DNA from: an uncultured Bacteriovoracaceae bacterium
GTDB lineage: Bacteria; Bdellovibrionota; UBA1018
Assembly: GCA_964395265.1 (NCBI GenBank)
Contig: CAYNDM010000002.1
Location: 1 to 38,475, forward strand
DNA length: 38,475 bases
Direction of reading: 5' to 3'
A model generated the notes under the pieces. That model made no database searches and was not told the origin of the DNA. It was given only the letters and a program-made list of their open reading frames with translations. The translations under genes were made by a program, and so were the position numbers. Shown in pieces: positions 3,270 through 38,003 of the stretch; position 1 is the first letter of the stretch, and every line of letters begins with the position of its first letter.

Positions 3270-3303
3270 CGCGCTGAAAACCCCTCCTTTACACTGGTTC
3301 TAT

Positions 3304-6620: not shown

Positions 6621-6678
6621 TTTCCTTTCGCCAGAGGTCGCGTCGCTTGATGGGGAGGACCGAACTTCTTACATCAAG

Positions 6679-7173: not shown

Positions 7174-7222
7174 CTTTACCGTGTTTATCGGCGCGGACAA
7201 CTGTGTTACGGGTGACGCAGTC

Positions 7223-9540: not shown

Positions 9541-9678
9541 GGGTTCCAATCTGTACCGGTCCGTCAAACGGCTGACAAGCCGTGAGTTCGCCGGACCGGA
9601 GGGGTGCGAGCCCGATGAGATCCCTCTTGTAAGGTCCAAAAATCCCGCTGAAGATAAATGTACCTTGAAGGAGATCCT

Positions 9679-10122
9679 ATGAAAAACATGATCGTCACTC
9701 TGGTAGCGACACTGGCTCTGTCGGCGGGAGCGATTGCGGATGATACTTTCTCCGCGGCTTCCTCTGGATTCGATACGATTCGCTCCAGCGCTTCTGGCAC
9801 GACAACCGCCAAGAAGAAGAAAGCCAAGAACGCCAACAAGAAGGTTGCCAAAGGCACTGCCAAGGCTAAGAAAAAAAACCAGAAGCAGGCCAAGAAGACC
9901 AAGAATGAGGCGAAGAAAAAGACCGCTAAAGCCAAGGCGAAGAACAACGGCCGCAGCATCGCCAGCACGAAGCCGAAGAAGAGCGCAAAGAAAAAGGTCG
10001 AACAGGCCGCGCCTTTGGTGGAGCATGAGATGGAGCAGGACGCTATGCCTGCGAACGATCCAATGCCGTCTTCAGACGATATGGGCGAAGCTCTTCTTCC
10101 CGGCGATATGCCAACCCAGTAA
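9679..10122 (+). CDS. Exported lysine-rich (KAKK-repeat) protein with acidic C-terminal tail
   Basis: GGAG lies 7 nt upstream of the ATG at 9679. The signal peptide is MKNMIVTLVATLALSAGAIA|DD. About 80 residues follow that are dominated by K/A (KKKKAKNANKKVAKGTAKAKKKNQKQAKKTKNEAKKKTAKAKAK), then a D/E/M/P-rich tail. A terminator follows. Confidence 0.7.
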   Translation: MKNMIVTLVATLALSAGAIADDTFSAASSGFDTIRSSASGTTTAKKKKAKNANKKVAKGTAKAKKKNQKQAKKTKNEAKKKTAKAKAKNNGRSIASTKPKKSAKKKVEQAAPLVEHEMEQDAMPANDPMPSSDDMGEALLPGDMPTQ

Positions 10123-15250: not shown

Positions 15251-15506
15251 GGTTCCGTTTTTGGCCAAGGCAAGAATGAGCCTGGGGCACGCCACTCCGA
15301 ACATCATCATGGGGGGCCTTATATCGGCTATCTGATTGCCAAGAGCGCTGGTGGAGAGATCACGGTCGACGGAAAGTCCAAGGAGGTCGAAGTCGACGAG
15401 CGTGACCTGGATGATATCGCCAAGCTCGACTACGGCTTGACCTTCGGTGCTGGTCGGGTTTCAGTTCTGAGGCTGAGGTCGGCAGCCGGCTCAGGCGCTA
15501 GTTGCT
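15251..15506 (+). pseudogene. Remnant of an outer-membrane beta-barrel gene (no start codon, internal fragment only)
   Basis: The frame is open from the TGA at 15248 to the TGA at 15504-15506 and has no start codon. It reads ..HHHGGPYIGYLIAKSAGGEITVDGKSKEVEVDERDLDDIAKLDYGLTFGAGRV.., which resembles the strand-loop-strand pattern (G.Y.GYL....D......DYGL.FGAG) of OMP_b-brl-type proteins. It is truncated where the next gene module begins. Confidence 0.4.
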
Positions 15507-21739: not shown

Positions 21740-22684
21740 TCAACAGGAGATCAGGCTGAAGAAACAGAATCCCATGCGGACGTCCCGGTAGCTCTTTTTG
21801 TTGCTGAAAAGGACGATGGCTTCGGTCCGAGCTCCCGGATGAACGACGAAGATCAGCGTCAGCGCGGACTGGACAATCTTGTAGATGCCCAGGCCCGCGC
21901 CGGGGTCGTTGATCGGAGCGATATAATCAGAGGAGCTGAAGTTCGCTCCCAGCTTTCCTATGATCTTGTCGGGCCTGAGCGAGCCGAATTGGTCGCAAAT
22001 CCGGATTCCGACAAGCTCGGGAGTGATGCCGACCTCGATCTCGACCTTCTCTTTGGGTGAAAGCTCGAAACCGTCCGCCCGATTCAGGCTCCGGCGGTAG
22101 TGCCCCTTTCCTTCTTCCCATGGGGCGTCGAAGATGGCGTTCATCAGGAGCTCGTCGGTCGCATCGGCTCCCAGTCCGGCGAGCTTCGGGATCACGCCGT
22201 TTTCGATGAGGAGTTGCTGGACCTGCTCGACCCGATCGTATTTTTCCAGGGAATGGGAAAGCGAGGATCTGAAGCTGAAGGTCATGGGGCCTTTCAGGAA
22301 ATCCTCGAGCGAGAAGGGCGATTTCGAGATGGCGCGCTCGATGAGCTTTGCGCAAAGGAAATCCGCCGGGGATACGTAGCGCCGATAAAGATGGTGGGCG
22401 AAAACCGGAGGAAGGAACAGCTCGGGAATATGGCTGACCTTCTCGTCGGTGATCGCGAAGACGTTATGCGGAGTGCCTCGTTCCTGAATCAGGCTCACCA
22501 ACTCTCTGAGCTTCGGGCATTGCGCATCCCAGAAAATGAGCGCTCTGTCATTGCGATCCAGTATCCCTGAGATGCTTTTGGCATCGGTCGCCTGCGTGAG
22601 CGGCAGGCCGGCTCTGGAGGCGACCTGGCTCCAAAACTGGATATCTTGGGTATTATTGGAGACCAGGAGTATCTCGGGGGTCAT
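21740..22684 (-). CDS. Pseudo-receiver + GHKL (RsbW/SpoIIAB-like HATPase) domain protein
   Basis: The N-terminal ~110 aa have a CheY-like layout (ILLVSNN...ALIFWDA...VFAIT) without an obvious acidic pocket. The C-terminus has an N-box-like DELLMNAIFDA, a G1-like ICDQFGSL and a G2-like GAGLGIYKI. Confidence 0.5.
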   Translation of the reverse strand: MTPEILLVSNNTQDIQFWSQVASRAGLPLTQATDAKSISGILDRNDRALIFWDAQCPKLRELVSLIQERGTPHNVFAITDEKVSHIPELFLPPVFAHHLYRRYVSPADFLCAKLIERAISKSPFSLEDFLKGPMTFSFRSSLSHSLEKYDRVEQVQQLLIENGVIPKLAGLGADATDELLMNAIFDAPWEEGKGHYRRSLNRADGFELSPKEKVEIEVGITPELVGIRICDQFGSLRPDKIIGKLGANFSSSDYIAPINDPGAGLGIYKIVQSALTLIFVVHPGARTEAIVLFSNKKSYRDVRMGFCFFSLISC

Positions 22685-22811: not shown

Positions 22812-25800
22812 TCAGGCCGGTGAAGTCTGGACCTGGCTCCTGAAAAGCTCCAAATAGACCCCCGCTTTGCGCATCAGCTCGTCATGAGTCCCTTCCTCGA
22901 CGATTTTCCCGTCCTGCATGACCAGGATCCTGTCGGCGAGCCGAACCGATGAGAGGCGATGCGCGATGATGATCGATGTGCGATCCTTGAGAATTTCTTT
23001 GAGGTTGTTCAGCAAGGTTCTCTCCGAGCGGGCGTCCAGGGCGGAGGTCGCCTCGTCCAGGATCAGGATGCGTGGATTGCGATAAAGAGTGCGAGCGAAG
23101 GAGATCCTCTGACGCTCGCCTCCTGATAGGCCTGTTCCGTTCTCCGCCAGGGTGTATTCGTAGCCCCGGGGCAGCTCCGAAATGAATTCGAAGCGTTTGC
23201 CTGTTTGGCGGCCTCGTCGATCCTGTCCTGGCATGGGGTATCGTCTCCATAGGCGATGTTGTCCAGCAGGTTACCGGCGAAAAGGTCGTTGTTCTGGTTG
23301 ATGAAGCCGATCTGGTTCCTCAGGGAGAAAATCGAGATGAAGGAGCTGTCCATGTCATCGAAGTAGATCTTTCCGGAGCTAGGCCTCAGGTTGCCTGCGA
23401 TCAGGTTCGCCAGCGTCGTTTTTCCGCATCCGCTCGCGCCGACGATCGCCACGACCTGCCGGGGATAGATCGTGAGGTCCACGTCCTGGATGACCCAAGG
23501 CGCGTCTTCCGAATGCCTGAACTGGATGCGCTCCAGGCGGATTTTCCCACGAAGGGGGAAATGATGCTTCAGGCGGGTTTCGGATGGGCTTTGTTCGGGT
23601 TCCTGGGCAAAAGTCTCGGCCAGCTTTCGAAGGGAGACGTCGAATTGCATGACCTCGAATGTCAGGTGCGAGAGCTGCAGGAACGGCTCGAAGAAGAAAC
23701 CCATCAGGATCATCGCTGACAAGATCTGCCCCGTGGACATTTCTCCATTCATCGCGAGATGTCCGCCGATCCAGACCGTGAGCACCAGAACCGCTCTGAG
23801 GAGCCATTCGATGAAGACCCGACTCGACTGGAACACCATCCAGAAGTTCCTCAGAGAGCGAATCCGAAGTACCTGCAGGGTCTCCCATTTGTGTCGCATG
23901 GCCTGCTCGATCCCCAAGGCTTTGATGGCGGTGATCGCTCCAACCTGCTCGGAGATGATGCTCTGTGATTTCGAGTCCACGTCGAAAATCCTCGAGTACA
24001 TCGCGCGAAGGCGTTTCCACGGGGCTAGCAGGAGCGTGGTCGCGAGCATCGCTGCGACGACCGCCGTCAGAGCGAGAGGTGGCGCGTAAAGCGCTAGGGC
24101 AATTAAATAGACGAGGCTGGATATCGCCCCTGTCCCGCACTCGAGGACCGGGCCGGAGAGGGTTCGCTGGATCTGCGAAACCGCTTCGACGCGCGTGAGG
24201 ATCGATCCGGTGCGGTCCGAAGCGAATCGTCGGGTTGGAAGGGCCAGCGCGTGCCGAAGGAGAGACGTCGAGAGCTCTTCGTCGAAGCGGGTGGAGAACT
24301 CGACCCGCATGAGTTCCCATGCCGCTTTCACCGCGACGGACAGGAGAATCAGGAGAACCAATCCGCCGAGAATCCATTGGAGACCGTGCCAGGATCGGCT
24401 CACGAAAACTTGATCGAGCGCGACCTGAGTCAGCACTGGCAAGCCGAGCGTCAATAGCGAGCCTATGATGCTCAGGCCGAGGATCGCGAGGAGATCGGAC
24501 CGGTATCGCGCGATCAGGCGAGTAAGGCTCAGCGTCGATGCGGGATTCTCTTGCTCAGAAAGGGCTTCGCCGTTGATGGGAGCGCGGGTTTCCAGTAGTA
24601 GTCCGTCCCAATTCTTCTCGAAGTCCTCGCTCCGGATCCGGACCACGCCGCGCGCGGGGTCATGAACCAGAAGGGGGCCGTTCCGGCCTTCTCTCTTGAG
24701 AAGGATGACCAGCCGGTGCTTGAGCATCACCAGCGCCGGCAACGCGTGCTGGGCGATCAAGCGCATGCTGGTTTTCCGGCTGGATGTCTGCACGCCGAGG
24801 GATTCGAGAATTTCGGCCAGGATCCCTAGGGAAGCCTGCTTTCTGAGGAGGAGCTGGCTTTCGATCCCCGACGGGCTGACGACGATTCCGTGCAAAGCGC
24901 AGACGTTGACGACGCTCGCGACATAGCTCATCAGATCGGATTCGGCCCTGCAGGCACCGGGAATCTCGATCGAATTCGGGCGACTCTCCGTCGAGAGACC
25001 GACCACGGTTTCTCCCGGGAGCTCGCTCAATCCTCCCTGCCTGAGTTCCGAGGATCTCGTCGCGCTCGCCGTCGCGTAGATCCACGGGTCGTCAAAGATC
25101 GGCTCGAGCAATCCAAGGCTTTCGAACAGGGGCGCGGCTCGCGAAAGATCGAGCTGGTGGACCATCGAAAGCTCGCTGGCAATCGCCGTGTAGGAGAGGC
25201 GATGAGGAGGGACGATGGCTTGTCCTCCGATCCAGGTCCCGGAGCCGGCTTCCGTCGTGAGAGGGGCGGAGCCTTCGGTTGCCCGGATGGTGAACTTTCC
25301 GGATAGGACAAAGTGGATGAATCCCTCCGTGAGAGCGGTCGAGACGGGAATCTCGCGAGGATCCGGGGGAATGAGGGAAATTAGATGGATGATGCTGGAT
25401 TGGGCGATCCCGCGGTCTTCGAGAAAGCGTCTGAACGAACGAACGGCAGGCGAGCTGGATACGAGCTTGAGGTAAGCCAGGCAGTCCGGTCGCAGGGAGA
25501 GCTGCTCCATGAACCTGTTCGCCGGCAGAGTGATCACTTTAGTGCGGGTCTCGGCGAAAGCCGAACGGGCGTGGGGGCGGCCTTGGATGAGGTCCGGGAG
25601 CGAAAGCGCTCGGTGCTTCTGCAGGTAACCCGTTTCGCCTCGTTCGGACGAGAGACGGAGGCCGTGGTCGATCGGGATGATCAGCTCGGTGATCGGCTCG
25701 CCTTCGGTCGTGATCTGCGCGTCGGGAGCGTATGAGCGAACAGTCCCCTCGTTCAAGAGCATTTGCTCAAGCTCGGGAAGGATGGCCAGGAGCGAGCTTT

Positions 25801-25837
25801 CCTTCAATTCGATCAGGATTTTCGAAAAGGTCGCCAT
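22812..25837 (-). CDS. ABC exporter with two N-terminal cNMP-binding-like domains and a Cys-less C39-like domain; reading frame broken once in the NBD (frameshift near 23190)
   Basis: Track ORFs 23063..25837 and 22812..23234 are one gene. The first carries a CNB-like PBC (GRPHARSAFAE), a C39-like region lacking the catalytic Cys (ESDLMSYVASVVNV.. but KHRLVIL, VHDPARG), six-TM ABC_membrane and Walker A GASGCGKTT. The second continues with FEFISELPRGYEYTLAENGTGLSGGERQR, ILILDEATSALD and IIAHRL. The junction reads ..IDEAAKQANA/FEFISEL.. if one base is added at GCTTCG (plus-strand AA at 23191-23192). Confidence 0.8.
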
Positions 25838-25843
25838 GATCGG

Positions 25844-26467
25844 TCACTCGCCCGAATTCACGCCAAAGCCCAAAAAGCGCTCCGAGACCAAAGAGATGAT
25901 TCGTTGGCTCTCTGTGATGATGGATGCCTTCACGCTCATGCCCGAGCGCAAGGGATAGTCGCGGACGTAGACTTGCAAGGCAGGGTTCTCGATTCTGGCG
26001 AATACGACGTGGCAGTGAGGTTTTTTCGAGTCGCAGTCATCGGAGACGACCGGTTGCGATTCGATCACGGCGGTCAGGGTTCCGAAACTTTCTTCTGGAT
26101 AGGGATCGACGCGAATCACTGCTTTCGATCCTTGCTTCACTCGAAGGATGCCATGAGGAGGAACCTCGAGCTTGGCGAATACGCCGGAAGCGGACGGGGC
26201 GGCTTTGGTAGCTCCGGTCCGCGAAGAAAGCTTCACATCTGGGGCGGGGGATTCGTGAGGGAGGAAAAGAGTGCCGCGCGCGTCGAGGGTGACCGTTGTT
26301 CGCGCGAAGATCGAGAACGCCAGGAGGCCTCCCAGGCACGCGGTGAGGGAGTAGAGCATGAGCCTGACCGAGAATGAAGGAGGAGTCCTGATGAAGTCAG
26401 CTGTTGTCCAGGCGACTTCCGTAGCGTGATACTCCAGGCTCGCGCGTCTTCCTAAGTCCTCATCCAT
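25844..26467 (-). CDS. Short HlyD-family membrane-fusion-like protein (no coiled-coil hairpin)
   Basis: N-terminal TM (LMLYSLTACLGGLLAFSIF). Beta-rich segments typical of MFP barrel domains follow (GILRVKQGSKAVIRVDPYPEESFGTLTAVIES; LRSGMSVKASIITESQRIISLV). It ends 6 nt before the ABC gene start, suggesting an operon. Confidence 0.6.
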   Translation of the reverse strand: MDEDLGRRASLEYHATEVAWTTADFIRTPPSFSVRLMLYSLTACLGGLLAFSIFARTTVTLDARGTLFLPHESPAPDVKLSSRTGATKAAPSASGVFAKLEVPPHGILRVKQGSKAVIRVDPYPEESFGTLTAVIESQPVVSDDCDSKKPHCHVVFARIENPALQVYVRDYPLRSGMSVKASIITESQRIISLVSERFLGFGVNSGE

Positions 26468-26627
26468 CGTTGTGTCATGATCAGTGTAATCTTCGCCTTG
26501 CGAGGCTCACAAGAAATTACTTTTCAATGTCGGATAGGTTTCCTAGGCTTATACGATGGGGTGACGGATCGCATCGCGGACCGGCCCATTCAAGGGCGTC
26601 AAGGGAATGGCATAATCTCGCCGAAGC

Positions 26628-29624
26628 ATGGATAAGATCACGGCAATCGAAAGCGCGCGGCTACGATCGGTCCTGACTGGACTTCCCGCCCAATGGGTAG
26701 AGGCCGTATTGGCGGATGCGGAGCTCGTCAATTTGCCCAAGGGGCAAGCGCTTTTTGCCCCCGGCGCCGAGCGCGTTCCCTGGATCGTGGCCGAAGGTCA
26801 GTTGTCTCGGGGATCCGAATCCGCGATATCAGGCGATCTGGTCGATCCGCGGGAGGACGCTTCGGATGAACGCGAGGCTATAGACTGGTCCGCTGAGGAA
26901 GTCAGTGGAGTCCTGCTTCTTCAGCCCTCCGCCTACGACCGGCTATTGGGCGAGGATCCCTCCGCACGCGAATACTTTCGTAGGTCCAGGCTTGAGTCCC
27001 TGCGCGGGCTCAAGATCGATCTGGTTCTGTCGGGGTTGCCGCAATCGCTGCTTTCTCCCACGCTGAACGCGTTGGTCGAGATGACATTCGAGGAATTCCA
27101 GAACGTTTGGGGGGATTCCACAGGGCTCCTGGTAGTCCAAGAAGGTGGGATCGAGGCGACTTCCCATAGGGGAGGAGACACGCTAGGAGTGGTCTGGCGT
27201 GGCGATTATTTTTTCTGTCGACGCACGCGCGCGTCGATTCAATGGATCGCGCGGCCAGAGACTCGGGTTTGGTGGCTCGGCTCCGGGCATTGGGCGCGGG
27301 CTTGTCGGACCAACCACGTCCACGGGATTTTTCCGGTACTCGATCCGTTGAAGAAAAAGATCGAGGCGGGACTGCACAAGCTCAAGGCGGTCTCGCCGAG
27401 GCACGCGAGCGAGGTCTCCGAGGACGATGGGGACGACGAGGATTTAGACCGCTTTTTTGCCAACGGAGAGGACTATGGTTGGAAGCCGCCAAGGCGATCC
27501 GCGGTCGTCATCCAGAACGACGAGATGGATTGCGCGGCGGCATGTCTTGCCTCGATCTGCGCTTACCATGGCAGAAGGATCGGCATCCAGAAGCTTCGCG
27601 AGCTCCTGCGGGTGAGCCGGGACGGAACGTCTCTTGAGTCACTCCTTGAGGGCGCGCTCACCGTGGGATTCGATGCCGTGCCGCTTGAGCTGGACGCATC
27701 GGACTTGGGGAATCTGAAACTGCCGTGCATCGCCCTCGTGGGTTATCACTACATGGTACTCTACGACTTCGGGCAAAGGGGCGCGCTCGTGATGGATCCC
27801 TCCGTGGGGATTCTGCGAAAGTCCTCCGAAGAGTTTCTGCGGGATTGGTCCGGTTACGCCCTGGCTCTCAGACCGACTGAGTCGCTTTTCCGTTATCCGG
27901 AGTCCGGTACGGATTATGCGAAGTATCTCGCGCTTCTGAAACACCACTGGGGCAGCGTAGGCGAGCTCTTTCTCGCATCTTCCCTGGGTCTGGCCTTGAG
28001 CCTGGCAGTGCCATTGGGGATGCGAACTCTGCTCGATGATATCGTGCCGAAAGGGAACCCGCCTGAGCTTCGCGTGGCGGTGCTCGTGGTTCTTGGAATC
28101 GTCGCGGTTTCGGGCGTGTTCGGGCTGATTCACCAGTACCTGATGGATCATCTGCGAGCGAGGCTGGAGACGAAGTTCTCCGCACTGTTCATCACGCATG
28201 TTTTCAAGTTGCCTCTCAGCTTCTTCTCTCTTCGGAAGGTCGGTGACATCACCTCCCGGATGGTCGATCTGATCTGGATCCGAGACGCCTTTACCGGCCA
28301 CGCCAACGAGATCATCCTCGGTGGGATGGCCATGCTGGCCTACCTCGTTCTGCTCGCTGCCTTTAGCTGGCAGGTCGCTTTGATGGCCTGCCTGATCCTG
28401 GGCGGCCTGGCCTTGTTCATCGTGTGGATTTTCAGAAAGCTCTCCGTCGTTCGAAAAGAGCTGATGAGCGCGACCGCCCTTACCAAGAGCATCTTATTCG
28501 AGCAGTTTCGCTCCCTCGAGACTCTGAAATCCTTGAATGCGCAGGTGCAGGCGCGGTGGCGATGGGAGTTTGCCCGTCTCAGGATGCTGCAGGCCGAACG
28601 CAAGTCCCGATTCCTGCTTTGCGGGGTCTTGGGTGCGTCGGAGCTGGCGCGGAACGCGTTGATCATCGGCGCTCTCTCGTTGGGCGCGGTGCTCCTGCTC
28701 GATGGAAAGCTTTCGCCGGGTCAGCTCGTGGCCATCAACGCGATCATAGTCGGGCTCACCACGCCGTTGCTGATGGTCATCGATCGACTCGGAGATTGGA
28801 ACCAGGTCGTCGTCTCCTTCGGGAGGGTCGACGACGTGTTCGTCGCTTTGCCGGAGCAGCGATGCGCCAAGGAGCGACCCGTCGAATTCGCTTTCGCCAA
28901 CGAGATCCGCTTCGAGGACGTTTACCACTCTTACGGGGATCCTTCGGAGGATGTCCTGAATGGAGTCAGTTTCTCGGTCAGGGCCGGGGACACGGTGGCC
29001 TTCGTGGGATCGAGCGGCTCGGGGAAGAGCACGCTAGCTTACTTGATCAGCCGTCTCTACCGTCCCCGCGAGGGCAGGATCCTGATCGATGGGGTGGAGT
29101 CCGGGGATTTCGCGCTCGAGGAGCTCAGGCGGAACGTGGGCATGGTGATTCAGGAGAACAGCCTGTTTTCAGGCTCGATTCTCGAGAACATCGCCTCCGG
29201 ATCCCCTCACCCCGATCTGGAGCGCGCGATCCGCGCGGCGATCCTGGCGGACGCCCATGAGTTCATCTCGCGACTTCCACAGGGCTACCTGAGTCAGCTC
29301 GGCGAGGGAGGCATGGGCCTTTCGGGAGGCCAAAAGCAGAAGATCAATATTGCCCGCGCGCTGTACAATGACCCGCCGATCCTCATTCTTGACGAGGCTA
29401 CCTCCGCCTTGGACGCCATCTCGGAGGAGTCGATCATCCGGAACCTTCGCAATATCGGGCGCAAGCGAACACTGATATTCATCGCTCACCGCCTGAACAC
29501 CATCCGGCATGCCGATCGGATCCTAGTGCTCGAAAAAGGAAAGATCGTAGAATCGGGGAGCCATGACGAGCTTCTCGGCCGAGGCGGAGTATACTCCCAG
29601 CTCCTGCGCGATCAGCTATCCTGA
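26628..29624 (+). CDS. Peptidase-containing ABC transporter (PCAT): cNMP-binding-like domains + intact C39 peptidase + TMD + NBD
   Basis: C39 catalytic set: VIQNDEMDCAAACLASI (Gln/Cys), GYHYMVLYD (His), VMDPSVG (Asp). Six-TM ABC_membrane region is present. NBD: Walker A GSSGSGKST, signature LSGGQKQ, Walker B ILILDEATSALD, H-loop IAHRL. Confidence 0.85.
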   Translation: MDKITAIESARLRSVLTGLPAQWVEAVLADAELVNLPKGQALFAPGAERVPWIVAEGQLSRGSESAISGDLVDPREDASDEREAIDWSAEEVSGVLLLQPSAYDRLLGEDPSAREYFRRSRLESLRGLKIDLVLSGLPQSLLSPTLNALVEMTFEEFQNVWGDSTGLLVVQEGGIEATSHRGGDTLGVVWRGDYFFCRRTRASIQWIARPETRVWWLGSGHWARACRTNHVHGIFPVLDPLKKKIEAGLHKLKAVSPRHASEVSEDDGDDEDLDRFFANGEDYGWKPPRRSAVVIQNDEMDCAAACLASICAYHGRRIGIQKLRELLRVSRDGTSLESLLEGALTVGFDAVPLELDASDLGNLKLPCIALVGYHYMVLYDFGQRGALVMDPSVGILRKSSEEFLRDWSGYALALRPTESLFRYPESGTDYAKYLALLKHHWGSVGELFLASSLGLALSLAVPLGMRTLLDDIVPKGNPPELRVAVLVVLGIVAVSGVFGLIHQYLMDHLRARLETKFSALFITHVFKLPLSFFSLRKVGDITSRMVDLIWIRDAFTGHANEIILGGMAMLAYLVLLAAFSWQVALMACLILGGLALFIVWIFRKLSVVRKELMSATALTKSILFEQFRSLETLKSLNAQVQARWRWEFARLRMLQAERKSRFLLCGVLGASELARNALIIGALSLGAVLLLDGKLSPGQLVAINAIIVGLTTPLLMVIDRLGDWNQVVVSFGRVDDVFVALPEQRCAKERPVEFAFANEIRFEDVYHSYGDPSEDVLNGVSFSVRAGDTVAFVGSSGSGKSTLAYLISRLYRPREGRILIDGVESGDFALEELRRNVGMVIQENSLFSGSILENIASGSPHPDLERAIRAAILADAHEFISRLPQGYLSQLGEGGMGLSGGQKQKINIARALYNDPPILILDEATSALDAISEESIIRNLRNIGRKRTLIFIAHRLNTIRHADRILVLEKGKIVESGSHDELLGRGGVYSQLLRDQLS

Positions 29625-29632
29625 TGCTCGTC

Positions 29633-31222
29633 TCAACGGATGTATCGTCCGGGAGAAATGATGCCGTGCGGATCCACGGCCTGCTTTATGGAGCGGAGCA
29701 GTTCATTGTAGCTTCCACGTATCGGAGGCAGGGATCCCATCGAATTCACGCCGAGCCGGTAAGGAATGTAGCCGAGGCGAATTGACTTCTTGAAGAGGAA
29801 CTCGTAGCAGGCCATCGCCCTCTCATCCTCTCCGGGGTAATCGCGATCGAAGGGACAGCGGGTGACCGCTTTGAGAGTGGGGCCGACGGTGGAAAGTTGA
29901 AGCCCTACCCCGATTTCGAGCTGAAATCGATCCATCGCCTCTTCGAGCAAATCCGTGTACAGGCGAACGTCTCGACCAGTCATTGGGATAATGGGAACGA
30001 ACCAGAATAGGCCGCATCGATCTCCGTCCGGGTCGATTTTAGCCGGGATCGGCATCTTCTTGCGCCAATAGGCCTCGAACAGGGTGTTCTTGCTGGGATA
30101 TCCCACGCACGGATTTCTTCGGAGCGAATCCGCCATTTGAGCGATCTGTCCTGGGCTGAAAGGAGAGCGCTTGGACTGTCTGAGCCGCCTGATCGTGTCC
30201 TGACTGAGAAAAAAGAGGTCGCCTACGCATTTGGAGATCTCGCGCGCGACCAGTGAGCATTCGGCCTCGCCTATTTCCTTTGAGGGCGCCGCGATAGGCA
30301 CTTGGCCGTTCCAGAGGTTCACGCCATGGATTTGCCGCAACTTCTTTCTGAGCGAAGGTGAGAGGCGGCGTTTTCCATTCGCGCTTTCCCAGGGAAACTG
30401 CTGGTTGATCATGATGTGGAGCAAGTCGCTGAAAATCACGGTGCGGCTTCGAAGAGCGTCGCTGAGCCTCATTTGGCGGAATTTGTCCACGACCGCCTCC
30501 AGCTTTTTCGGCTGGTCGGTCCCGAAGGAAATGACTTCGAAATGCTTTGGCTTGGGGTAAAGGGCCAAGGTCATTCGTGTCGCTATTCCCAATCCGGATT
30601 GGATGAAAATCCCTTCGACCCTGGGACCGACGCCGCGATTGTAGAGGTTTGCCGATCGGCTGGATTCGAACCTCGACATCCCCGTATAGAGGAGTTCTCC
30701 GTTGGGCAACACGAGCTCGATCGCATGGACGCGGGGAAGTTGGTCGTCTCCGTTCTTCCCGTATCCGGCTCCGTCTTCCATGATATTGCCGATGAGGCTG
30801 CCTTCAGGGTTCGCGCTGATGTTGACCATGAAGGGAGACTTGCGCTTCAGCAGGTACTCGGACGCCATTTCGGCGGATACGCCTGGCTCGACCGTAATGT
30901 ACCCCATCTCCTCGTTGTATTCGACGATCCGATTGAGTCTCCCCAGGTACAAGAGGACACAGTGATCGGATGGGGGGACCATCGAGCCGTATCCCCAGTT
31001 TTTTCCCAGGCTGACCGGATAAAGCGGGACCTTGAATTTCGCCGCCGTGCGGACGCAGGCTTGGACTTCTCGCGTGGTGCGGGGCCTGAGGACGGCTCTG
31101 ATGCGCTGACGAGTAGGGAAGGTGCAGCTTGAGAACTTCCTGATGGAGTCAGGATCGGAAAGGACGTGCGAGGTACCGATCGCGCGCTTCCATTCTGCCA
31201 TTGCGCGAGCGAGATAGGGCAT
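29633..31222 (-). CDS. FAD-linked oxidase, VAO/PCMH (vanillyl-alcohol oxidase / p-cresol methylhydroxylase) type
   Basis: FAD_binding_4 pattern: ..AVLRPRTTREVQACVRTAAKFKVPLYPVSLGKNWGYGS...LGRLNRIVEYNEEMGYITVEPGVS... The C-terminal segment is VDPHGIISPGRY. The GxNxGYG motif resembles VAO/PCMH rather than the GlcD subgroup. Confidence 0.7.
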   Translation of the reverse strand: MPYLARAMAEWKRAIGTSHVLSDPDSIRKFSSCTFPTRQRIRAVLRPRTTREVQACVRTAAKFKVPLYPVSLGKNWGYGSMVPPSDHCVLLYLGRLNRIVEYNEEMGYITVEPGVSAEMASEYLLKRKSPFMVNISANPEGSLIGNIMEDGAGYGKNGDDQLPRVHAIELVLPNGELLYTGMSRFESSRSANLYNRGVGPRVEGIFIQSGLGIATRMTLALYPKPKHFEVISFGTDQPKKLEAVVDKFRQMRLSDALRSRTVIFSDLLHIMINQQFPWESANGKRRLSPSLRKKLRQIHGVNLWNGQVPIAAPSKEIGEAECSLVAREISKCVGDLFFLSQDTIRRLRQSKRSPFSPGQIAQMADSLRRNPCVGYPSKNTLFEAYWRKKMPIPAKIDPDGDRCGLFWFVPIIPMTGRDVRLYTDLLEEAMDRFQLEIGVGLQLSTVGPTLKAVTRCPFDRDYPGEDERAMACYEFLFKKSIRLGYIPYRLGVNSMGSLPPIRGSYNELLRSIKQAVDPHGIISPGRYIR

Positions 31223-31370
31223 AGGCTCATTCTCCGGAAGGATTTCGCAGATTTTCCACAGTATAGGAAATGCGACCGGCAGGGGCTAGGTGAAAATGAA
31301 TGGCGGATTCCGGAGAGAGACCGCACGTTGCGAACGGTGAGGGCGCCCCTTCGCATGCGCGTGGCGCATA

Positions 31371-31404
31371 AACAAAAAGGGATGGGCTGTGATCAGCCCA
31401 TCCC
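31371..31404 (-). terminator. Strong rho-independent terminator directly after the small peptide gene
   Basis: On the minus strand, GGGATGGGCTG-ATCA-CAGCCCATCCC (11-bp perfect stem, plus coordinates 31379-31404) is followed by TTTTTGTT (31371-31378). Confidence 0.85.
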
Positions 31405-31450
31405 AAACTCTAGACTTTATAGCCCCGAGTTGAAGTCAGCAAGCCCTCGC

Positions 31451-31543
31451 TTAGTACGGAGGCTTAAATACAGGCTTTGCACCACCTTTGATCTTTTTCA
31501 GACTCGATTTGCTGAGTTTCTTTTTGCTTGCTTGCTTCTTCAT
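31451..31543 (-). CDS. 30-aa double-glycine-leader precursor peptide: MKKQASKKKLSKSSLKKIKGG|AKPVFKPPY
   Basis: My own translation of the minus strand; the ORF is absent from the track because it is under 60 aa. AGGAG lies 5 nt upstream of the ATG at 31543, and the stop TAA is at 31451-31453. The leader matches LSxxELxxIxGG at L-12, S-11, L-7, I-4 and G-2/G-1. A terminator follows, and C39-ABC exporters are encoded nearby. Confidence 0.7.
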   Translation of the reverse strand: MKKQASKKKLSKSSLKKIKGGAKPVFKPPY

Positions 31544-31883
31544 ACGTTCTCCTAATCCCCGTAATCGGATCGGTGACCTCGCACGGTTTACGGGGAAGAT
31601 CCCGGGCGAAGTCTAGGCCCCCTCGCTGAATGATTCCGTCGGCTCTCGCCTCAGGTGCTATCAGATCAGTGACCCAATACTTGATAGATTAAGTCAGAAA
31701 TTAAGATGCGACAAGTGAATTTTTCCGAGCGAGCTCGAGCCTGAAATTCGTCTTCACGAAATCCGTGAAAATCGCCCGGAATTTAGGGTATTTTTTGACT
31801 GAAAAAGAGTGTGTCGCGATGTGCTCGTGACACAGGCAGATCGATTGCCTCGAACGCGGATCCCATGCTCGCTTTTGGCTTCA

Positions 31884-31912
31884 TTGCAGGCATCGGGTGT
31901 CTGACTTACAAT
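31884..31912 (+). promoter_or_regulatory. Candidate sigma-70-type promoter for the glycosyltransferase gene
   Basis: TTGCAG (31884-31889), a 17-nt spacer, then TACAAT (31907-31912), about 33 nt upstream of the ATG at 31945. AAGGAAGG serves as the SD. This is a pattern match only. Confidence 0.3.
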
Positions 31913-31944
31913 AGAGGCTCCACAAAACCTAAGGAAGGGTACTT

Positions 31945-32882
31945 ATGAAAAGAGGCAATAGGACGAACGCGACCACTTCGGCTGTGAGCGGGTCGCCGCT
32001 GGTCAGCATCATCATGCCTGCCTACAACGTGGAAAAGTACATCGGGGATTCGATTCGCTCCGCTCTCGCTCAGTCTCACAGAAACATCGAGCTTATCATC
32101 GTCGACGATGGCTCGCGCGATCGGACCGCGCGCGTCTGCCAGACGTGGTGTCGGCGCGACCGTCGAGTCCGGCTGATCCGAGCGAGGAATGGAGGGGTCG
32201 CCAGAGCCCGGAATATTGGGATCCGGAGCGCCAAGGGCGAGTGGATCGCGTTCATGGACTCGGATGATCTTTGGAAGGCAAGGAAGCTTGAGCGGCAGCT
32301 CCGAGCCGCGCGCGAAATGGGCGCGGATGTGGTCTATACGGGGGCATGGATGTTCTGGAACGATCGTCCGGAGCGCCCCGAAGTGCCTCTCGGTATCAGG
32401 GCCGGGCGTTTTACCTCCGAAGCGATGCTGAATGCCTGCTGGGAGGCAGTCACTTCCTCCCTTCGACGGTGCTCATGTCGAGAGAGATCATCCGCAGGAC
32501 GGGCCTCTTCAAGGAAAAGGGCTGGATCGCGAGAGAGGTGGAAGACTGGGAGTTCTTCATCCGAATGGCGGATCGGGGAGGCGGCGTATTTTTTGGGTTG
32601 GAAGATTGCCTGGTTCTATATCGGGTCAGGCCGGGATCGACCTCAAGCTCGCATGAGCCTCACCATTGGGGAATGCTGAAGCTGCTCGATATCTATCGGG
32701 AGCACCCTAAAGCCAAGAAAGTCGTGATCAAGGCGTCGTATATGCAGACATGTCGCAGGATCGTGGCATTTCAGTATGGGAATCGGGCCTTCAATCAGCT
32801 CGGAAAGATCTTCGAAGCCGTACGGAGCCACTATCCCGGCGAACAGAAGCGCTTCCTCGAGTTCATCAACCAGATCCTGTGA
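31945..32882 (+). CDS. Family-2 glycosyltransferase, reading frame broken once (near 32436)
   Basis: GT2 motifs VSIIMPAYNVEKYI, ELIIVDDGSRD and AFMDSDD are in ORF 31945..32679. The continuation LLGGSHFLPSTVLMSREIIRRTGLF...EDWEFFIRMA...LVLYRV is in ORF 32346..32882. Adding one C to the CC at 32435-32436 gives ..SEAMLNALLGGSHF... Confidence 0.75.
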
Positions 32883-32885
32883 GGC

Positions 32886-33962
32886 TCATTTCTTACCGAT
32901 GATGATGGCCCTGGCCTGTCTCTCGAAACGAAGGATACTGCGCCGCGAGAACCCGGCAGTTTTGAGCCAGGCGCTGTAAGTCGCGGCCGGATAGACCATG
33001 CCTTCGCCGGTGGCCAGGCAGTGGAAGTAAAGGGAGAGGGCGGCAGCGCCCATGTCTCCCGTCTCGTCGTCGTTGCTGACCGAGTTGAAGATCATCAGCG
33101 AGCCGCCGGGTTTGAGAGCGTCGAAGCTCTTTTTCATCAGCTTCAAGTTCGTCTTCGGCGAGTAGATGTTGAAGATATGGGAAAAGTAGATCCCATCCAT
33201 TCCTGAAGTAAACCGGTCCTTGACGAAGTTGCCGGGATGGATGCTGATTCGATCCGAGAGCCCGTGTTTGGCGATATTCTTCTTCGCCCGCCGGCAGATC
33301 GAGGGTAAATCGAAGATCGTGATTTTCAGGCGAGGGTAGCGCTGGCACATCCGGATGGCATGGGTGCCATCGGCGCCGCCTACGTCCATGAGGTGCCTCA
33401 TCTTGCCGATCGTGGGATCGAGGGCGGGAAGATACACATCCTCGAGCTCGTCGGTGATGTATTTGGCGATGCCCCTCATCCAGGCATGAAAGATGGTCTC
33501 ATTGTCGCGGTGGCCGCTGAGGCGTTCGTAAAGCGTGTTTCCCTTGCCAGGGAATTCCTTGAGTCCGGTGTTCGTGCCCTTCTTCAGGGATTCGAGCAGA
33601 TGGTTCATGGGCCGGTAGATCAACGAGTGATTGGCCTCGAGGATCGGACGGACGTTGTATGGACTTCCCTCTCCGAATAGTGCCGTGGCGACCGGGTGAT
33701 TGCTGTAGGTGCCGCGGGTCCGGTTCTTCTTGATGAGATTGAGCGAACAACAGGCCATGAGCAGGACGCGGGCGGAATTCTCGGGGATTCTCAATGCCGA
33801 ACGGATATCCGTCATGGTACGGCCCGGGCGGTTGGCGAGGTAGGTGAACAAACCCAGTCTGGTTGCGGCGTAGATTGCTTCCGAAAAGGCGAAACCGTAA
33901 ATCAGCAGATCCAGGTGATGCTCGGGATGGAATGTGTTCACCGTGCGTTGTCGTCTTGCCAT
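32886..33962 (-). CDS. Class I SAM-dependent O-methyltransferase (Methyltransf_2 / COMT-ASMT-like, with N-terminal dimerisation wHTH)
   Basis: SAM motif I is HLMDVGGADGTHAI, with acidic D at ITIFDLP. The N-terminal helix-rich domain is LIYGFAFSEAIYAATRLGLFTYLA. A strong SD (GAGAGGGGAAG) lies upstream of the ATG. Confidence 0.8.
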   Translation of the reverse strand: MARRQRTVNTFHPEHHLDLLIYGFAFSEAIYAATRLGLFTYLANRPGRTMTDIRSALRIPENSARVLLMACCSLNLIKKNRTRGTYSNHPVATALFGEGSPYNVRPILEANHSLIYRPMNHLLESLKKGTNTGLKEFPGKGNTLYERLSGHRDNETIFHAWMRGIAKYITDELEDVYLPALDPTIGKMRHLMDVGGADGTHAIRMCQRYPRLKITIFDLPSICRRAKKNIAKHGLSDRISIHPGNFVKDRFTSGMDGIYFSHIFNIYSPKTNLKLMKKSFDALKPGGSLMIFNSVSNDDETGDMGAAALSLYFHCLATGEGMVYPAATYSAWLKTAGFSRRSILRFERQARAIIIGKK

Positions 33963-34163
33963 CTTCCCCTCTCAGTCATTTTTTTGGTGGTGACTGTAGT
34001 ATGCGCAGACTCACGCGATTTCTTCAAGATTACGCGGCTTGCGTTCGCTTCTGTCAATTTCCTGACTTCAAGGGGGATCGTCCGGTTCACGGGTTTCTGT
34101 AGACATTGTCAAGAAATCTCCCGATGATTGAAAGAGATCCAAGACATCGCAAGGGAGATCCGA

Positions 34164-35363
34164 ATGACCAAGTCCGGAGTTGGTTATAGCGAGAAAGTGA
34201 ATTCGAACGAAGCAGGGACGGAGGCAGCCCAGCAGGCTCTAGCGTCCAGCAAGATATCGGGCAGGAAGGTCGCCTTGCTCTTCTCGACTGCCAAGCACAA
34301 CCCCAAGGAGCTTCTGTCGTCGGTGCTTTCGGTGCTCGGTGCGGATACCAAGATCTACGGCGGCTCCGTTTGCGGCATCATCAGCAAGGAAAAGGTCAGC
34401 TACAACGGCTTCGAGGTCGGTCTCGCCGTGTTCTCCGCCGACGAAGTCAAGATCGACGGTCACATCGTCAGAAACATCAAGGGCAGGGAGCTGGAGTCCG
34501 GCGTCGAGCTGGGGCAACAGCTTGCATCGCGGAAGTTCGCGGAGGACGATACGTTATTCGTCGGATTCGAGGCGATCCGAGGCGAGGGGCCAACCCAGCT
34601 GTTGAACTTCGGAACGCCGATCCTCGAAGGCATGTCGCAGTCGCTGAAGTCCTGGCCGAACACGATAGGCGCTGCATTTCAGGGCGATTTCAATTTTCAG
34701 TCGTCCTTCACGTTTTTCGACAGCGAGGTCGAGACGGCCGCCGCCATCGCGCTGATCATTTCGGGCAAGAAGAGCCGCTCCGTCCTGATGCATGGCTGCA
34801 CGCCCATGAGCGACTATTACAAGATCACCAAGTGCGCGGGCAACGTCGTGCTCGAGATCGACGGCAAACCGGCGCTCGAGCGGGTTTCGGAGATTCTCGG
34901 GCCCGGCTCGGACAAGACCTGGGAAGAGTACCCTCTCTATCTGAATTTCGGACGAAATCACGGCGACAAGTTCGACGATTTCATCGAGGAGCGCTACACG
35001 AACAATATGTGCGTGGCGATCGATCCCCCGAGCAAGGCATTGGTGCTTTTCGAGCCCAGCTTCAAGGAAGGCGACGAGTTCCAGCTCATGCGCCGCCATA
35101 AGGAGTTCAATACTATGGAGGAGCGCCTGGACGGATTTTTCAAGGAAGGGAAGGCGCCGTTTTTCAATCTTTACGTCGACTGCGTGGGCCGTTCAGGCAT
35201 GCTCATGGGAACCGAGACCGAAGACGCGACCGTCGTTCAGAAATTCGTGAAGGACGCCCCTGCGGCGTTCTTGGGCATTTACGGGGGCCGAGAGATCGCG
35301 AAGTTCGGCGCCCAGCCCGCAGTGGTCTGCCTCACCGGCGTGCTCACGTCGTTCGCGGACTGA
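34164..35363 (+). CDS. FIST-domain (FIST_N/FIST_C) sensory protein
   Basis: AGGGAG lies 6 nt upstream of the ATG at 34164 (the track starts at TTG 34128). The layout and motifs are typical of FIST proteins: ..AGTEAAQQAL...VALLFST...IYGGSVCGIIS...; later FFNLYVDCVGR and FLGIYGGREIA. Confidence 0.7.
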   Translation: MTKSGVGYSEKVNSNEAGTEAAQQALASSKISGRKVALLFSTAKHNPKELLSSVLSVLGADTKIYGGSVCGIISKEKVSYNGFEVGLAVFSADEVKIDGHIVRNIKGRELESGVELGQQLASRKFAEDDTLFVGFEAIRGEGPTQLLNFGTPILEGMSQSLKSWPNTIGAAFQGDFNFQSSFTFFDSEVETAAAIALIISGKKSRSVLMHGCTPMSDYYKITKCAGNVVLEIDGKPALERVSEILGPGSDKTWEEYPLYLNFGRNHGDKFDDFIEERYTNNMCVAIDPPSKALVLFEPSFKEGDEFQLMRRHKEFNTMEERLDGFFKEGKAPFFNLYVDCVGRSGMLMGTETEDATVVQKFVKDAPAAFLGIYGGREIAKFGAQPAVVCLTGVLTSFAD

Positions 35364-35376
35364 ATGGATCAGAGCG

Positions 35377-38003
35377 ATGTCTGAAGATCGGGACAGGATA
35401 GCCATCTCGAGAAAGAGGCCAGCTATTACAAGAAAAAGGTCAACGAACTTACCGGACATAACCTTTCGCTCGAGTACAAGATCGGCGCTCTCATCAACGA
35501 GCTCAAGCAGAAAAGGCTCGGGTTCGAGTTGCTCTCCCAGCTTCAACAATCGATCGGAACCTATCGCGAGGCGTCCGGCATCTTCGAGTTCGCACTCAAG
35601 GCGATGATTTCCTCGCTCAATATGGAGCGAGCCGTGGCGCTGGTCCCGGCGGCGCGGGAGAACGTCTACAGCATCTCGAAGATCCTGGGATACACTGCTG
35701 AGCTCGAGGAACGGCTCAAAGAGAAGAAGATCGAAGTCCCGAAAGAGCTTCAGGCAGAGGGAAGCTTCTTGGTCGTCAACAAAAGCAGCAGCAGCAACGA
35801 GTTGATCGAGAGCATACGCGAGGCGCTGGACCTGCCGTACTTCATTCTCGTTCCGGTGCTGGTGGAAAAGAAGCCCATCGGGATCATCATCACCGGCAGG
35901 ATGCAGGAGCAGAGGCCCGTCAAGCTTCCTCTCGACAAAGGGGATGCCGAGACCGTGCAGTCCATCGGCGGACTGATCGCCGCGTCGGTCCACAACCTTC
36001 GAGTTTACGCGCTTGAGGAGACCCAGAAACTCCAGACGGATTTTTTCGCCAATATCTCCCACGAGTTCAGGACGCCGATCACCCTGACTTTGGGCCCCCT
36101 CGAGGGGCTGCTTTCGGGTCGCTACGGGAACCTCCCCGAGGCGGCAAAAAACCAGGTTGAGGTGATGTTGCGAAATCAGCAGCGCCTTTTGAAATTGATC
36201 AACGAGATCTTGGACCTGACCAAAGTGGAAGCCGGGAAAATGCAGCTGCATGCGTCCAAGGTTCGCAGCTTCAACAGCTTCGTTCAGGACAGGGTCGAGC
36301 AGTTCAGGTCGCTGGCAGAAAAACGAGGGATCGAGCTTAGGTCCAAGCTCGATCCCGAGGTGGATAAGGCGGAGCTTTACCTCGACCTAGAGAAGATCGA
36401 CAAGGTCATCTTCAATCTCTTGTCGAACGCCCACAAATTCACCAAATCCGGCCATGTCGAAGCCAGAACGGCGATCCAGGATGGATCTTTTGTCTTCACC
36501 GTCTCTGACACCGGGATCGGCATCAAGGCGGATCAGCTCATCTATGTCTTCGATCGGTTCAAACAAGCCGATGGAAGCTCGTCGCGAGAGTACGCGGGAA
36601 CTGGAATCGGTCTCTCCCTGGTCAAGGAGCTGGTGCAGCTGCATTCCGGCCAGATCTCGGTTCATAGCGAGTACGGAAAAGGAACCACGTTCACGGTCAC
36701 GATCCCGGTGGGCAAGGCTCACTTGGATCCCGCTAGCCTTGCGGATGCCCCCGATGCCGAACCAATTCAACCCATGCCGGCGTCGGTAAACCGGGTCGTC
36801 GAGATTCGCGAGGGGGTGGCGGAGAAGGACGAGCTCGAGGAGATCGAAGCGCTCAATGCCAAGACTCGCGAAAATTGGGTGGAGGGTCGAGGGACGATTC
36901 TCTACACGGACGATAACCGCGACCTGCGCTGTTATGTCTACGAGATCCTCTCGGAGCATCATAATGTCTACCTGGCTCATCATGGCAAAGCCGGTCTCGA
37001 GCTGGCTCTGCAAGTGGACGTCGATCTGATTCTCTCGGATCTCATGATGCCTGTCATGACGGGCACCGAGTTTCTGCGAAGTGTTCGAATGGAGAACCGC
37101 CTGCAAGGTATCCCATTCGTCTTATTGACCGCGAAGTCGACCAGCGATTCGAAACTGGAAGGACTCGAGACCGGGGCGGACGATTACCTGAGCAAGCCTT
37201 TCTCCGAGAGCGAGCTCAAGGCGAGGATCAAGAATCTCATCAAGCTTCGTCAGCAGCATTTGCGGATCCGGCGCGAGCTCGAGGCGGCCAGGCAGATCCA
37301 GCAAGCATTGCTTCCGAAGCTCGACCTGAGGGGAAAAAATTACCTACTCGACGCGCTTTACGAGCCGTCCGAGGAGCTTTCCGGCGATTTCTACGACTAC
37401 CTTGAAAACGGGGATTGGGTCTATTTCTACCTGGCCGACGTCACCAGTCATGGGACGGCCGCGGCCCAGGTCACCTACCTGCTCAAGACAATGATGGGGC
37501 AGCTGATTACCGAGGGGGAGCCTCCGGCGCTTTCGAGGCTTCTCGCGGAGCTCGCGCGTCGGTACTGCGAGTACGGGCTGAACTACGGCATCGGGATCCA
37601 GGTGGCCCGTTTCAATAAAAAGCGTCAAATCATGGAGTGCGCGATGAGCAATGCCCCCAGGGCCATCGTGTTCAGGAACTGCAATCAGGAGATCCTGCGT
37701 CTTCGTCCGGGACCGATTATTGACAGCGCGACCGGCGGGCGCAAAATCAGGCCCGAGGATTTCGAGGTGTGCCAGCTCGCGCTGAAACCAGGTGATTCGG
37801 CTTATTTCTTCACCGACGGCTGTTACGAGCTGCCGACAGGCGACGATTCGGCCCCGTTGGGCTACAGAAGGTTCAGCAAGATCATATCCGACCTTAACCG
37901 CAGCCAATGGAAGGAAGACCTCCTGACTACGCTCAAGGGGTTTCGGTCCGCCGGCAGCAACGACGTGGACGATATGACCGTCCTGATGTTCCGCCTTCAA
38001 TAG
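35377..38003 (+). CDS. Hybrid signalling protein: coiled coil + GAF-like + HisKA/HATPase_c + REC + PP2C/SpoIIE phosphatase; 5' end apparently frameshifted (near 35403)
   Basis: H-box FFANISHEFRTPIT. HATPase boxes LLSNAHKFT, DTGIGI, GTGIGLSLVKEL. REC: ILYTDDN...LILSDLMMPVMTG...DDYLSKPF. PP2C/SpoIIE: LSGDFYDY, ADVTSHG, FFTDGCYE, DDMTVLMF. The intact ORF starts at TTG 35529. However, the same frame is protein-like (HLEKEASYYKKKVNELTGHNLSLEYKIGALINELKQKR) back to 35385 with no start codon. ATG 35377 (MSEDRDRIA) joins it if one C is added to the GCC at 35401-35403. Confidence 0.8.

Follow-up and report, generated by a model that had tools for sequence, protein, structure and literature searches.

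We analysed a window of 38,475 bp, which is an entire NCBI contig (CAYNDM010000002.1, from an uncultured Bacteriovoracaceae bacterium) and contains a locus encoding a 30-aa precursor peptide, a peptidase-containing ATP-binding cassette (ABC) transporter (PCAT) and a flavoprotein oxidase related to CndG and FeeG. Gene anatomy and domain alignments support a genuine double-glycine (GG) peptide and PCAT export locus. The best reading of the whole, which we put forward tentatively from the sequence, is that the PCAT exports the peptide and that the C-terminal Tyr of the peptide is converted to a 4-hydroxystyrylamide; the locus would then be a candidate variant among peptides that are synthesized ribosomally and modified post-translationally (RiPPs), defined by a CndG-type decarboxylase. 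The oxidase is of the CndG/FeeG type, the peptide ends in Tyr, and a related oxidase clade occurs in Nif11/PCAT clusters with Trp-ended precursors; together, these observations make the link between oxidase and peptide a real lead. The parts of a peptide pathway that an earlier reading of the same DNA (the sequence-only reading) had listed are all present, at or near where it placed them. The oxidase is among them, but its CndG/FeeG affiliation, the terminal Tyr of the peptide and the Trp-ended sister clusters had gone unnoticed. Between 22812 and 38003, the genes follow in the order ABC2(-), mini-HlyD(-), PCAT(+), oxidase(-), peptide(-), glycosyltransferase of family GT2(+), methyltransferase(-), and FIST and kinase(+). 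The coordinates of all features are collected in Table 1.

Table 1. Features of the peptide locus and related loci (ABC2, second ABC exporter; SAM, S-adenosylmethionine; ORF, open reading frame)
Feature	Position	Strand	Basis or content
ABC2: tandem cNMP-binding, C39-like, transmembrane and nucleotide-binding domains	22812..25837	-	Pfam
Mini-HlyD adaptor, 207 aa	25844..26467	-	TIGR01843, positions 304-405 only, 36.9 bits, E 2e-9
Divergent intergenic region, adaptor/ABC2 operon versus PCAT	26468..26627 (160 bp)	.	ORF map, sequence
PCAT: ~290-aa N-terminal extension, C39 peptidase, transmembrane and nucleotide-binding domains	26628..29624	+	Pfam
CndG/FeeG-like oxidase, VAO/PCMH 4-phenol subgroup	29633..31222	-	FAD_binding_4 (PF01565), E 3e-21
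Intrinsic terminator of peptide gene	31404..31379	-	perfect 11-bp stem, 8 GC pairs, 4-nt loop, then TTTTTGTTT T-run
Precursor peptide gene, 30 aa	31451..31543	-	leader MKKQASKKKLSKSSLKKIKGG, core AKPVFKPPY
Shine-Dalgarno AGGAG, 5 nt 5' of peptide ATG	31553..31549	-	read from sequence
GT2 glycosyltransferase, frame-broken	31945..32882	+	Glycos_transf_2, E 1e-37; TuaG, WcaA, EpsE-like matches
Class I SAM methyltransferase (Methyltransf_2 and dimerisation domain), SibL/FlxJ-like	32886..33962	-	Pfam
FIST sensor protein	34128..35363	+	Pfam
Hybrid histidine kinase-receiver-PP2C phosphatase	35529..38003	+	Pfam
Nif11/oxidase loci	L010:1156-3184; L033:9989-12142; L041:5523-11491; L044:9367-13188; L059:2656-5329; L113:904-4238; L144:3-7515		

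The precursor peptide and its export genes

The 30-aa double-glycine precursor proposed by the sequence-only reading is a real gene, with the correction that it lies on the minus strand. It starts with ATG behind a Shine-Dalgarno sequence, and its terminator lies 46 nt past the stop codon. C39 peptidase domains recognise leader positions -12, -7 and -4 before the GG, and the leader of the window peptide, LSKSSLKKIKGG, has the canonical double-glycine pattern (L-12, S-11, L-7, I-4, G-2, G-1). Matches of the peptide to NCBIfam bacteriocin-leader models were below cut-off (NF047798, E 0.0024; NF033383, E 0.0059), and the 21-aa, Lys-rich leader gave no match to Nif11 or TIGR03798. Among the intergenic GG small ORFs of the window, this is the only one that combines a ribosome-binding site with such a leader; the second match to a loose filter, an ORF of 19-24 aa at 15261..15335, is without a comparable leader. 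The ribosome-binding site, the ATG, the gene's own terminator, the canonical leader and the lack of any comparable small ORF indicate that the peptide gene is real: by its anatomy it is genuine, and it is presumably expressed. Searches around it found no sigma-70-like promoter in 31100..32000 and no direct repeats upstream of the gene, and sigma-54-like matches across the window were at chance level only. The core, AKPVFKPPY, contains a single Tyr, which is its C-terminal residue, and is free of Ser, Thr and Cys. In a background count, ~2% of ORFs end in Tyr.

The PCAT contains a Peptidase_C39 domain (Pfam, E 5e-31) in which the catalytic Cys, His and Asp and the oxyanion Gln are all kept in the C39 alignment, in agreement with the intact protease claimed for it earlier, and the protein aligns end to end with the structures of PCAT1 (4ry2) and ComA (8hf4). 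Its N-terminal 285 aa matched no Pfam model. The closest relatives of the PCAT share 37% and 29% identity with it. The 29% relative (P0008, in locus L002) has a weak N-terminal cNMP_binding match in two stretches (24.4 bits versus a gathering score of 27.5). The 37% relative adjoins a GG peptide (L001:6682-6897), which agrees with a peptide-export role of the window PCAT. This peptide, from a JGI metagenome, is 71 aa long, with a GG leader ending in …LLIQGGG before FGSFLRK…, and its gene lies downstream of those for a full-length HlyD and a rotamase-like protein.

The second exporter, ABC2, matched cNMP_binding twice, Peptidase_C39 (E 1.9e-9), ABC_membrane and ABC_tran in Pfam. In the alignment, its C39-like domain is degenerate, with Glu in place of Gln and Tyr in place of Cys, as in HlyB, and judging from these residues it is catalytically dead. 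Thus, of the paralogous exporter with a Cys-less C39-like domain described by the sequence-only reading, the Cys-less domain stands, while paralogy with the PCAT holds in the ABC core only. Full-length paralogy of the two proteins was ruled out, as their N-termini of ~290 aa cannot be aligned. The ABC2 gene contains a frame break, one missing base near 23190, between AAKQANA and EFISELPRGY, and the 140 aa past this break match HlyB C-termini (E 1.5e-50).

Residues 3-90 and 82-200 of the adaptor match the two ends of HlyD proteins of ~410 aa (phmmer, 1.84 billion proteins), so the adaptor is an HlyD with an internal deletion of ~200 aa: the membrane anchor at the N-terminus and the beta-barrel at the C-terminus are kept, and the lipoyl/alpha-hairpin middle is gone. 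The short HlyD-like adaptor noticed earlier is therefore an HlyD in which the middle part has been lost. The same phmmer search returned a few other short HlyD forms (165-220 aa). Such a short adaptor could not reach an outer-membrane channel in a Gram-negative host. It should be noted that in L002:3374-3841 a related PCAT is paired with a 155-aa adaptor that matches the beta-barrel model only; thus, a very short HlyD-family adaptor accompanies each of two PCATs with long N-termini (of the cNMP-binding type where detectable). No similarity was detectable between the 207-aa adaptor of the window and the 155-aa adaptor of L002.

The sequence-only reading had likened the two ABC exporters and HlyD to the NHLP/Nif11 export cassette. 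The likeness extends to the layout, i.e., a PCAT, a second ABC protein with an N-terminal extension and an HlyD-family protein, and to cleavage after GG, but the export proteins score below the NCBIfam equivalog cut-offs. The PCAT reached 458.2 bits on TIGR03796 (cut-off 853.3) and ABC2 reached 200 bits in the main frame plus 134 in the C-terminal frame on TIGR03797 (cut-off 709.4), compared to 1150.9 and 982.3 for the corresponding proteins of L041, one of the Nif11 loci considered below; the window adaptor gave no match to TIGR03794. The L041 trio and the HlyD of a further Nif11 locus, L144, exceed the NHLP cut-offs. The precursor also differs, as it has a 21-aa Lys-rich leader instead of a Nif11/NHLP domain. 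By these scores, the window cassette is NHLP-like in layout and is not a member of that group.

Compared with ComC-ComAB, class II bacteriocins, EntF, PCAT1 and LahT, the locus shares the hydrophobic residues at -12, -7 and -4, the GG, the C39-ABC fusion with its Gln/Cys/His/Asp set and an adjoining accessory adaptor gene. It differs from these double-glycine systems in having a core of 9 aa only, a probable Bdellovibrionota (Gram-negative) host and extensions of ~290 aa at the N-termini of both ABC proteins, of the cNMP-binding type where detectable. It also adds a peptidase-dead ABC protein, a hairpin-less adaptor and a natural-product oxidase beside the precursor.

The oxidase and its relatives

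The oxidase gene directly follows the peptide gene, on the same strand and at a separation of 228 bp. Its product is 38% identical to CndG of Chondromyces crocatus over 527 aa (E 5e-129), a match named 1'-carboxy-chondrochloren decarboxylase in UniRef; scores against the solved PCMH/EUGO/VAO structures were 120-185 bits only, far below that of CndG. In the family alignment, Tyr78 and Arg489 are invariant and Tyr488 is nearly invariant, and these residues align with the gyg and yr of solved homologues. We take Tyr78 to be the phenolate-binding Tyr of the GYG motif, and Tyr488-Arg489 to be the Tyr-Arg pair of the 4-phenol subgroup. The nearest homologues (41-42% identity) directly follow nonribosomal peptide synthetase (NRPS) modules of C-A-PCP-TE composition, which is the CndG arrangement. 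CndG, FeeG and HyeB carry out the oxidative decarboxylation of an N-acylated tyrosine to a hydroxystyryl enamide (PMC11350588, PMC11959600). The window oxidase resembles them in full-length homology, in the 4-phenol Tyr and Tyr-Arg residues and in the position of its relatives after NRPS termination modules, and the window offers an N-acylated C-terminal tyrosine as a candidate substrate. The acyl group would, however, be a ribosomal peptide and not a fatty acyl or a polyketide synthase (PKS)/NRPS chain, and the window is without an acyltransferase: neither an NRPS nor an N-acyl amino acid synthase was found in it.

Known C-terminal oxidative decarboxylases of RiPPs are LanD, EpiD and CypD (HFCD flavoproteins that act on Cys and yield aminovinyl-cysteine, AviCys) and MftC (a radical SAM enzyme that acts on the Tyr of MftA). 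Styrylamines of cyclopeptide alkaloids are made by plant 2-oxoglutarate (2OG) oxygenases (PMC12871766). With all of these the window would share the chemistry, in which a ribosomal peptide loses its C-terminal carboxylate and an enamide results, and with MftC also a substrate that ends in Tyr. The difference is in the enzyme, which belongs to an unrelated family; the window contains no HFCD, radical SAM or 2OG enzyme. The sequence-only reading knew of no RiPP class with a VAO-type enzyme, and none turned up in the searchable part of the literature. A 2024 review ties the VAO/PCMH decarboxylases to fatty-acyl and PKS/NRPS products only, with no tie to RiPPs (PMC11350588).

We compared the loci around 160 oxidase relatives (80 genomes and 80 metagenome contigs). 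A sister clade of oxidases, with 57-79% mutual identity, is found in seven of these loci beside GG-cleaved precursors with Nif11 leaders. The seven loci belong to cyanobacteria and unassigned metagenome contigs, L144 being high in G+C. PCAT and HlyD-family export genes are present in L033, L041, L044 and L144, the loci whose contigs extend far enough to show them, and a Trp halogenase homologue in at least three (L041, L044 and L059). All distinct precursors in these loci (10/10) end in Trp while their cores vary, compared to a background of 2.3%. In L010, L044 and L113, the precursor gene is followed by the oxidase gene on one strand, the same as in the window, and in L144 the oxidase is the sole tailoring-type gene. 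The seven loci look like SrpE/SrpI-type clusters, and their oxidase may decarboxylate the C-terminal Trp; the later papers on SrpI that were covered make no mention of the oxidase. The oxidase family has thus been recruited at least once to precursors that carry a GG leader and whose C-terminal aromatic residue is invariant. The window locus is similar to them in its GG-cleaved precursor, short core, aromatic last residue, adjacent oxidase and PCAT export, and differs in having Tyr instead of Trp, a mini leader instead of Nif11, no halogenase and an oxidase of another branch.

Beside the 80 genomic homologues, GG-leader small ORFs that end in Tyr were at chance level (72 of 3137 ORFs). Using tblastn, the window peptide, adaptor, GT2 and methyltransferase gave nothing or isolated weak matches in all fetched loci.

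Other arrangements recur around the oxidase family. In Bacteroidota of the Chitinophagaceae type (L072:4139-8693; L073:1945-6500; L066:7593-12154; L079:8915-13762), a conserved protein of ~233-276 aa, with no Pfam family in its L072 copy, precedes the oxidase, which is followed by a protein of ~710-720 aa and then by a receiver-kinase hybrid; this looks like a module for signal synthesis and sensing. In ~37 of the loci L003-L082 (e.g., L017:13831-14619), many of them from Bryobacterales and other Acidobacteriota, a family of ~262 aa lies near the oxidase, and the one member that was scanned has a PEP-CTERM motif. In other loci, a GT1 glycosyltransferase and a fatty-acid desaturase recur beside the oxidase.

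Proposed pathway and competing readings

In the reading that we favour, the 30-aa precursor would be translated from its own short transcript. The cytoplasmic CndG-type oxidase would then oxidise the C-terminal Tyr by the mechanism of its family, with transfer of a hydride to FAD, formation of a quinone methide and loss of CO2, which would leave a 4-hydroxystyrylamide, i.e., an enamide, at a mass change of -46.005 Da. Recognition of the C-terminal acyl-Tyr would be enough, so that the enzyme could do without a leader-binding domain. The SibL-like methyltransferase might subsequently methylate the phenol ring or its oxygen. The PCAT, which has the domains for this role, would recognise the L-12/L-7/I-4/GG leader, cut after Gly21 and export AKPVFKPP-(styrylamide), a cationic nonapeptide, and ABC2 with the hairpin-less mini-HlyD might aid export or immunity, if the layout is taken as that of two-ABC NHLP-type cassettes. 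The GT2 most likely has an unrelated role in the cell envelope. Since FIST and kinase genes adjoin the locus, the product might act as a signal and not as an antibiotic.

Several observations weigh against this pathway. The window oxidase lies outside the Nif11-associated clade (41-44% identity to its members), so that its use on a peptide would be a second, independent recruitment. The oxidase family is without an adjacent GG peptide in 153 of the 160 loci; its usual neighbours are two-component sensors, GT1, fatty-acid desaturase, PEP-CTERM proteins, FeeM-like synthases and NRPSs. Known members of the CndG/FeeG family use small acyl-tyrosines, with no reported activity on ribosomal peptides. 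Within the locus, gene orientations alternate, a strong terminator stands between the peptide gene and that of the oxidase, and both clear frame breaks of the 38-kb window are found here (ABC2, 23150-23250; GT2, 32380-32460). The locus is also a singleton, with best relatives at 42% (oxidase) and 37% (PCAT) identity among 5.8 billion proteins, and exact-sequence look-ups of the PCAT, the peptide and other proteins of the window returned no second contig.

Export of an unmodified double-glycine peptide is a substantial, albeit doubtful, possibility: the PCAT, ABC2 and mini-HlyD would cleave and export linear AKPVFKPPY as a class-II-bacteriocin-like or pheromone-like product, and the oxidase, methyltransferase and GT2 would be unrelated to it and might, e.g., produce a tyrosine-derived small molecule connected with the FIST and kinase genes or an envelope polysaccharide. 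The terminator after the peptide gene fits such an arrangement, as does the closest PCAT relative, which serves an ordinary GG peptide without such enzymes nearby. Neither the methyltransferase nor the GT2 is a conserved partner of the oxidase or of the PCATs, and in the case of hyellamide the substrate of a CndG homologue and a glycosyltransferase is a small N-acyl-tyrosine. Two-component sensors are usual neighbours of the oxidase family, and in L008:6140-11659, from a metagenome-assembled genome labelled delta proteobacterium, the genes for FIST, a histidine kinase and an oxidase homologue form a head-to-tail series, all on the same strand. The FIST proteins of L008 and of the window are 32% identical over their full length (E 4e-65), and the window FIST lies 3 kb from the window oxidase. 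This string suggests that the oxidase might belong with the signalling genes and not with the peptide, and there are hints of a recurring link of the oxidase family to FIST/two-component signalling. We tentatively regard the FIST and kinase as a possible signalling partner of the locus; alternatively, peptide/oxidase and FIST/kinase could be one signalling system. Conversely, the 38-kb contig was found to contain no FeeM-type enzyme, SGNH acyltransferase or NRPS for a small-molecule route, a terminal Tyr next to a C-terminal-Tyr decarboxylase would be a coincidence of ~2-3%, and the Trp-ended Nif11 clusters show the oxidase family recruited beside GG-leader precursors.

The sequence-only reading had gone further and proposed that the peptide is oxidised, methylated and glycosylated by a set of VAO-type oxidase, O-methyltransferase and GT2 that defines a class of its own, a proposal that we consider very improbable. 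All three genes lie in a physical cluster, no more than 4.3 kb from the peptide gene, and the phenol of hyellamide is glycosylated after decarboxylation of the CndG type. By their names, the oxidase and SibL/FlxJ-like methyltransferase families presumably both act on hydroxy-aromatics. The best solved relative of the methyltransferase is SibL (4qvg, E 1.5e-53), and its best NCBIfam match is the FlxJ family (109 bits versus a cut-off of 560). We take SibL to be an aromatic C-methyltransferase; thus, the methyltransferase itself is present, but the "O-" in its earlier name is not established. From these matches it is an enzyme of the phenolic small-molecule type, a candidate for methylation of a phenol ring or of its oxygen. 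The GT2 matched chondroitin synthase and GalT1 in the PDB, gave no glycocin SunS-type match in the PDB and NCBIfam scans, and reached 53.8 bits on the MftF model TIGR03965 (cut-off 280); its frame break is near 32420-32440, with the downstream 178 aa open. It is of the polysaccharide type and probably outside the peptide pathway. Two known systems were rejected, a glycocin because there is neither a SunS-type match nor a Cys/Ser/Thr acceptor in the core, and a mycofactocin-like system because no radical SAM enzyme is present among the ORFs scanned and the GT2 scores as given above on TIGR03965. The core has one Tyr and lacks Ser, Thr and Cys, so that O-methylation would have to compete with O-glycosylation for a single phenol. 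The GT2 and methyltransferase genes are convergent single-gene units, and their homologues are only isolated weak matches, in 1-2 loci each of the 160 around the oxidase family. The proposed tailoring set is therefore not borne out: for the methyltransferase and the GT2, the lack of synteny elsewhere that the sequence-only reading had itself raised as an objection is what the oxidase loci show, and neither recurs beside the PCATs.

It is improbable that the whole is a relic or an artefact, i.e., a decaying locus or a silent small ORF, with the broken ABC2 and GT2 as pseudogenes and no mature product. The two frame breaks hint at decay or at an assembly error, and no other convincing frame break was found in the window; two overlapping ORF pairs, 3265..4942 and 6547..8191, were taken as start-site choices on the positions of ORFs and domains only. 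The locus is also absent from sequenced relatives, though a housekeeping protein of the same contig, EpmA, has Bdellovibrionota homologues at 60-67% identity. However, the frames past both breaks are open and conserved, so the breaks are either very recent or assembly errors. The genes for the PCAT, oxidase, methyltransferase, adaptor and peptide are intact, with a normal G+C content at third codon positions (0.66-0.76), and the peptide gene has complete expression signals.

Host context and significance

The locus is flanked by chromosomal genes, namely those for FtsK, a ROK kinase, a pseudouridine synthase and sigma-54 regulators. For the EpmA ORF at 8308..10026 (-), the named best matches are almost all from Bdellovibrionota/Oligoflexia (60-67% identity); therefore, the host is probably Gram-negative and of that phylum. 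This ORF encodes an EF-P lysine aminoacylase (EpmA/GenX) and not an aminoacyl-tRNA synthetase, and it runs ~160 codons upstream of the start in the NCBI protein. Directly downstream of ABC2, a 314-aa protein (21740..22684, -) matched nothing in Pfam or NCBIfam; on inspection by eye, its N-terminus looks receiver-like and its C-terminus shows a GxGxG ATP-binding-like motif, and it may regulate the locus. A scan of the window with Rfam found no RNA family, and the window contains no tRNAs.

The decarboxylation that we favour for the window peptide can be extended to a wider proposal, which we regard as rather doubtful: CndG-like flavoenzymes would be an unrecognised family of RiPP tailoring enzymes that convert a C-terminal Trp (in the Nif11/SrpE-like clusters) or Tyr (in the window) to enamides, the window being the smallest such system, in which a 30-aa precursor would give a cationic, Pro-rich octapeptidyl 4-hydroxystyrylamide, and its product may be a secreted signal read by the FIST and kinase. 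If this is true, a VAO/PCMH enzyme would provide a further route to C-terminal decarboxylation of RiPPs, one that is oxygen-dependent and simple in its cofactor. Such enzymes would also be a candidate origin for peptides ending in a p-hydroxystyrylamide, such as gombamide A, the biosynthesis of which is not known (PMC12426817). An enzyme of this kind, independent of a leader and reading only the aromatic residue at the C-terminus, would be a useful tool to cap peptide C-termini. For Bdellovibrionota, secretion of a modified peptide would be unexpected, and the idea would also assign a role to the oxidase of the Nif11/C-terminal-Trp (SrpE/SrpI-like) clusters, which are widespread.

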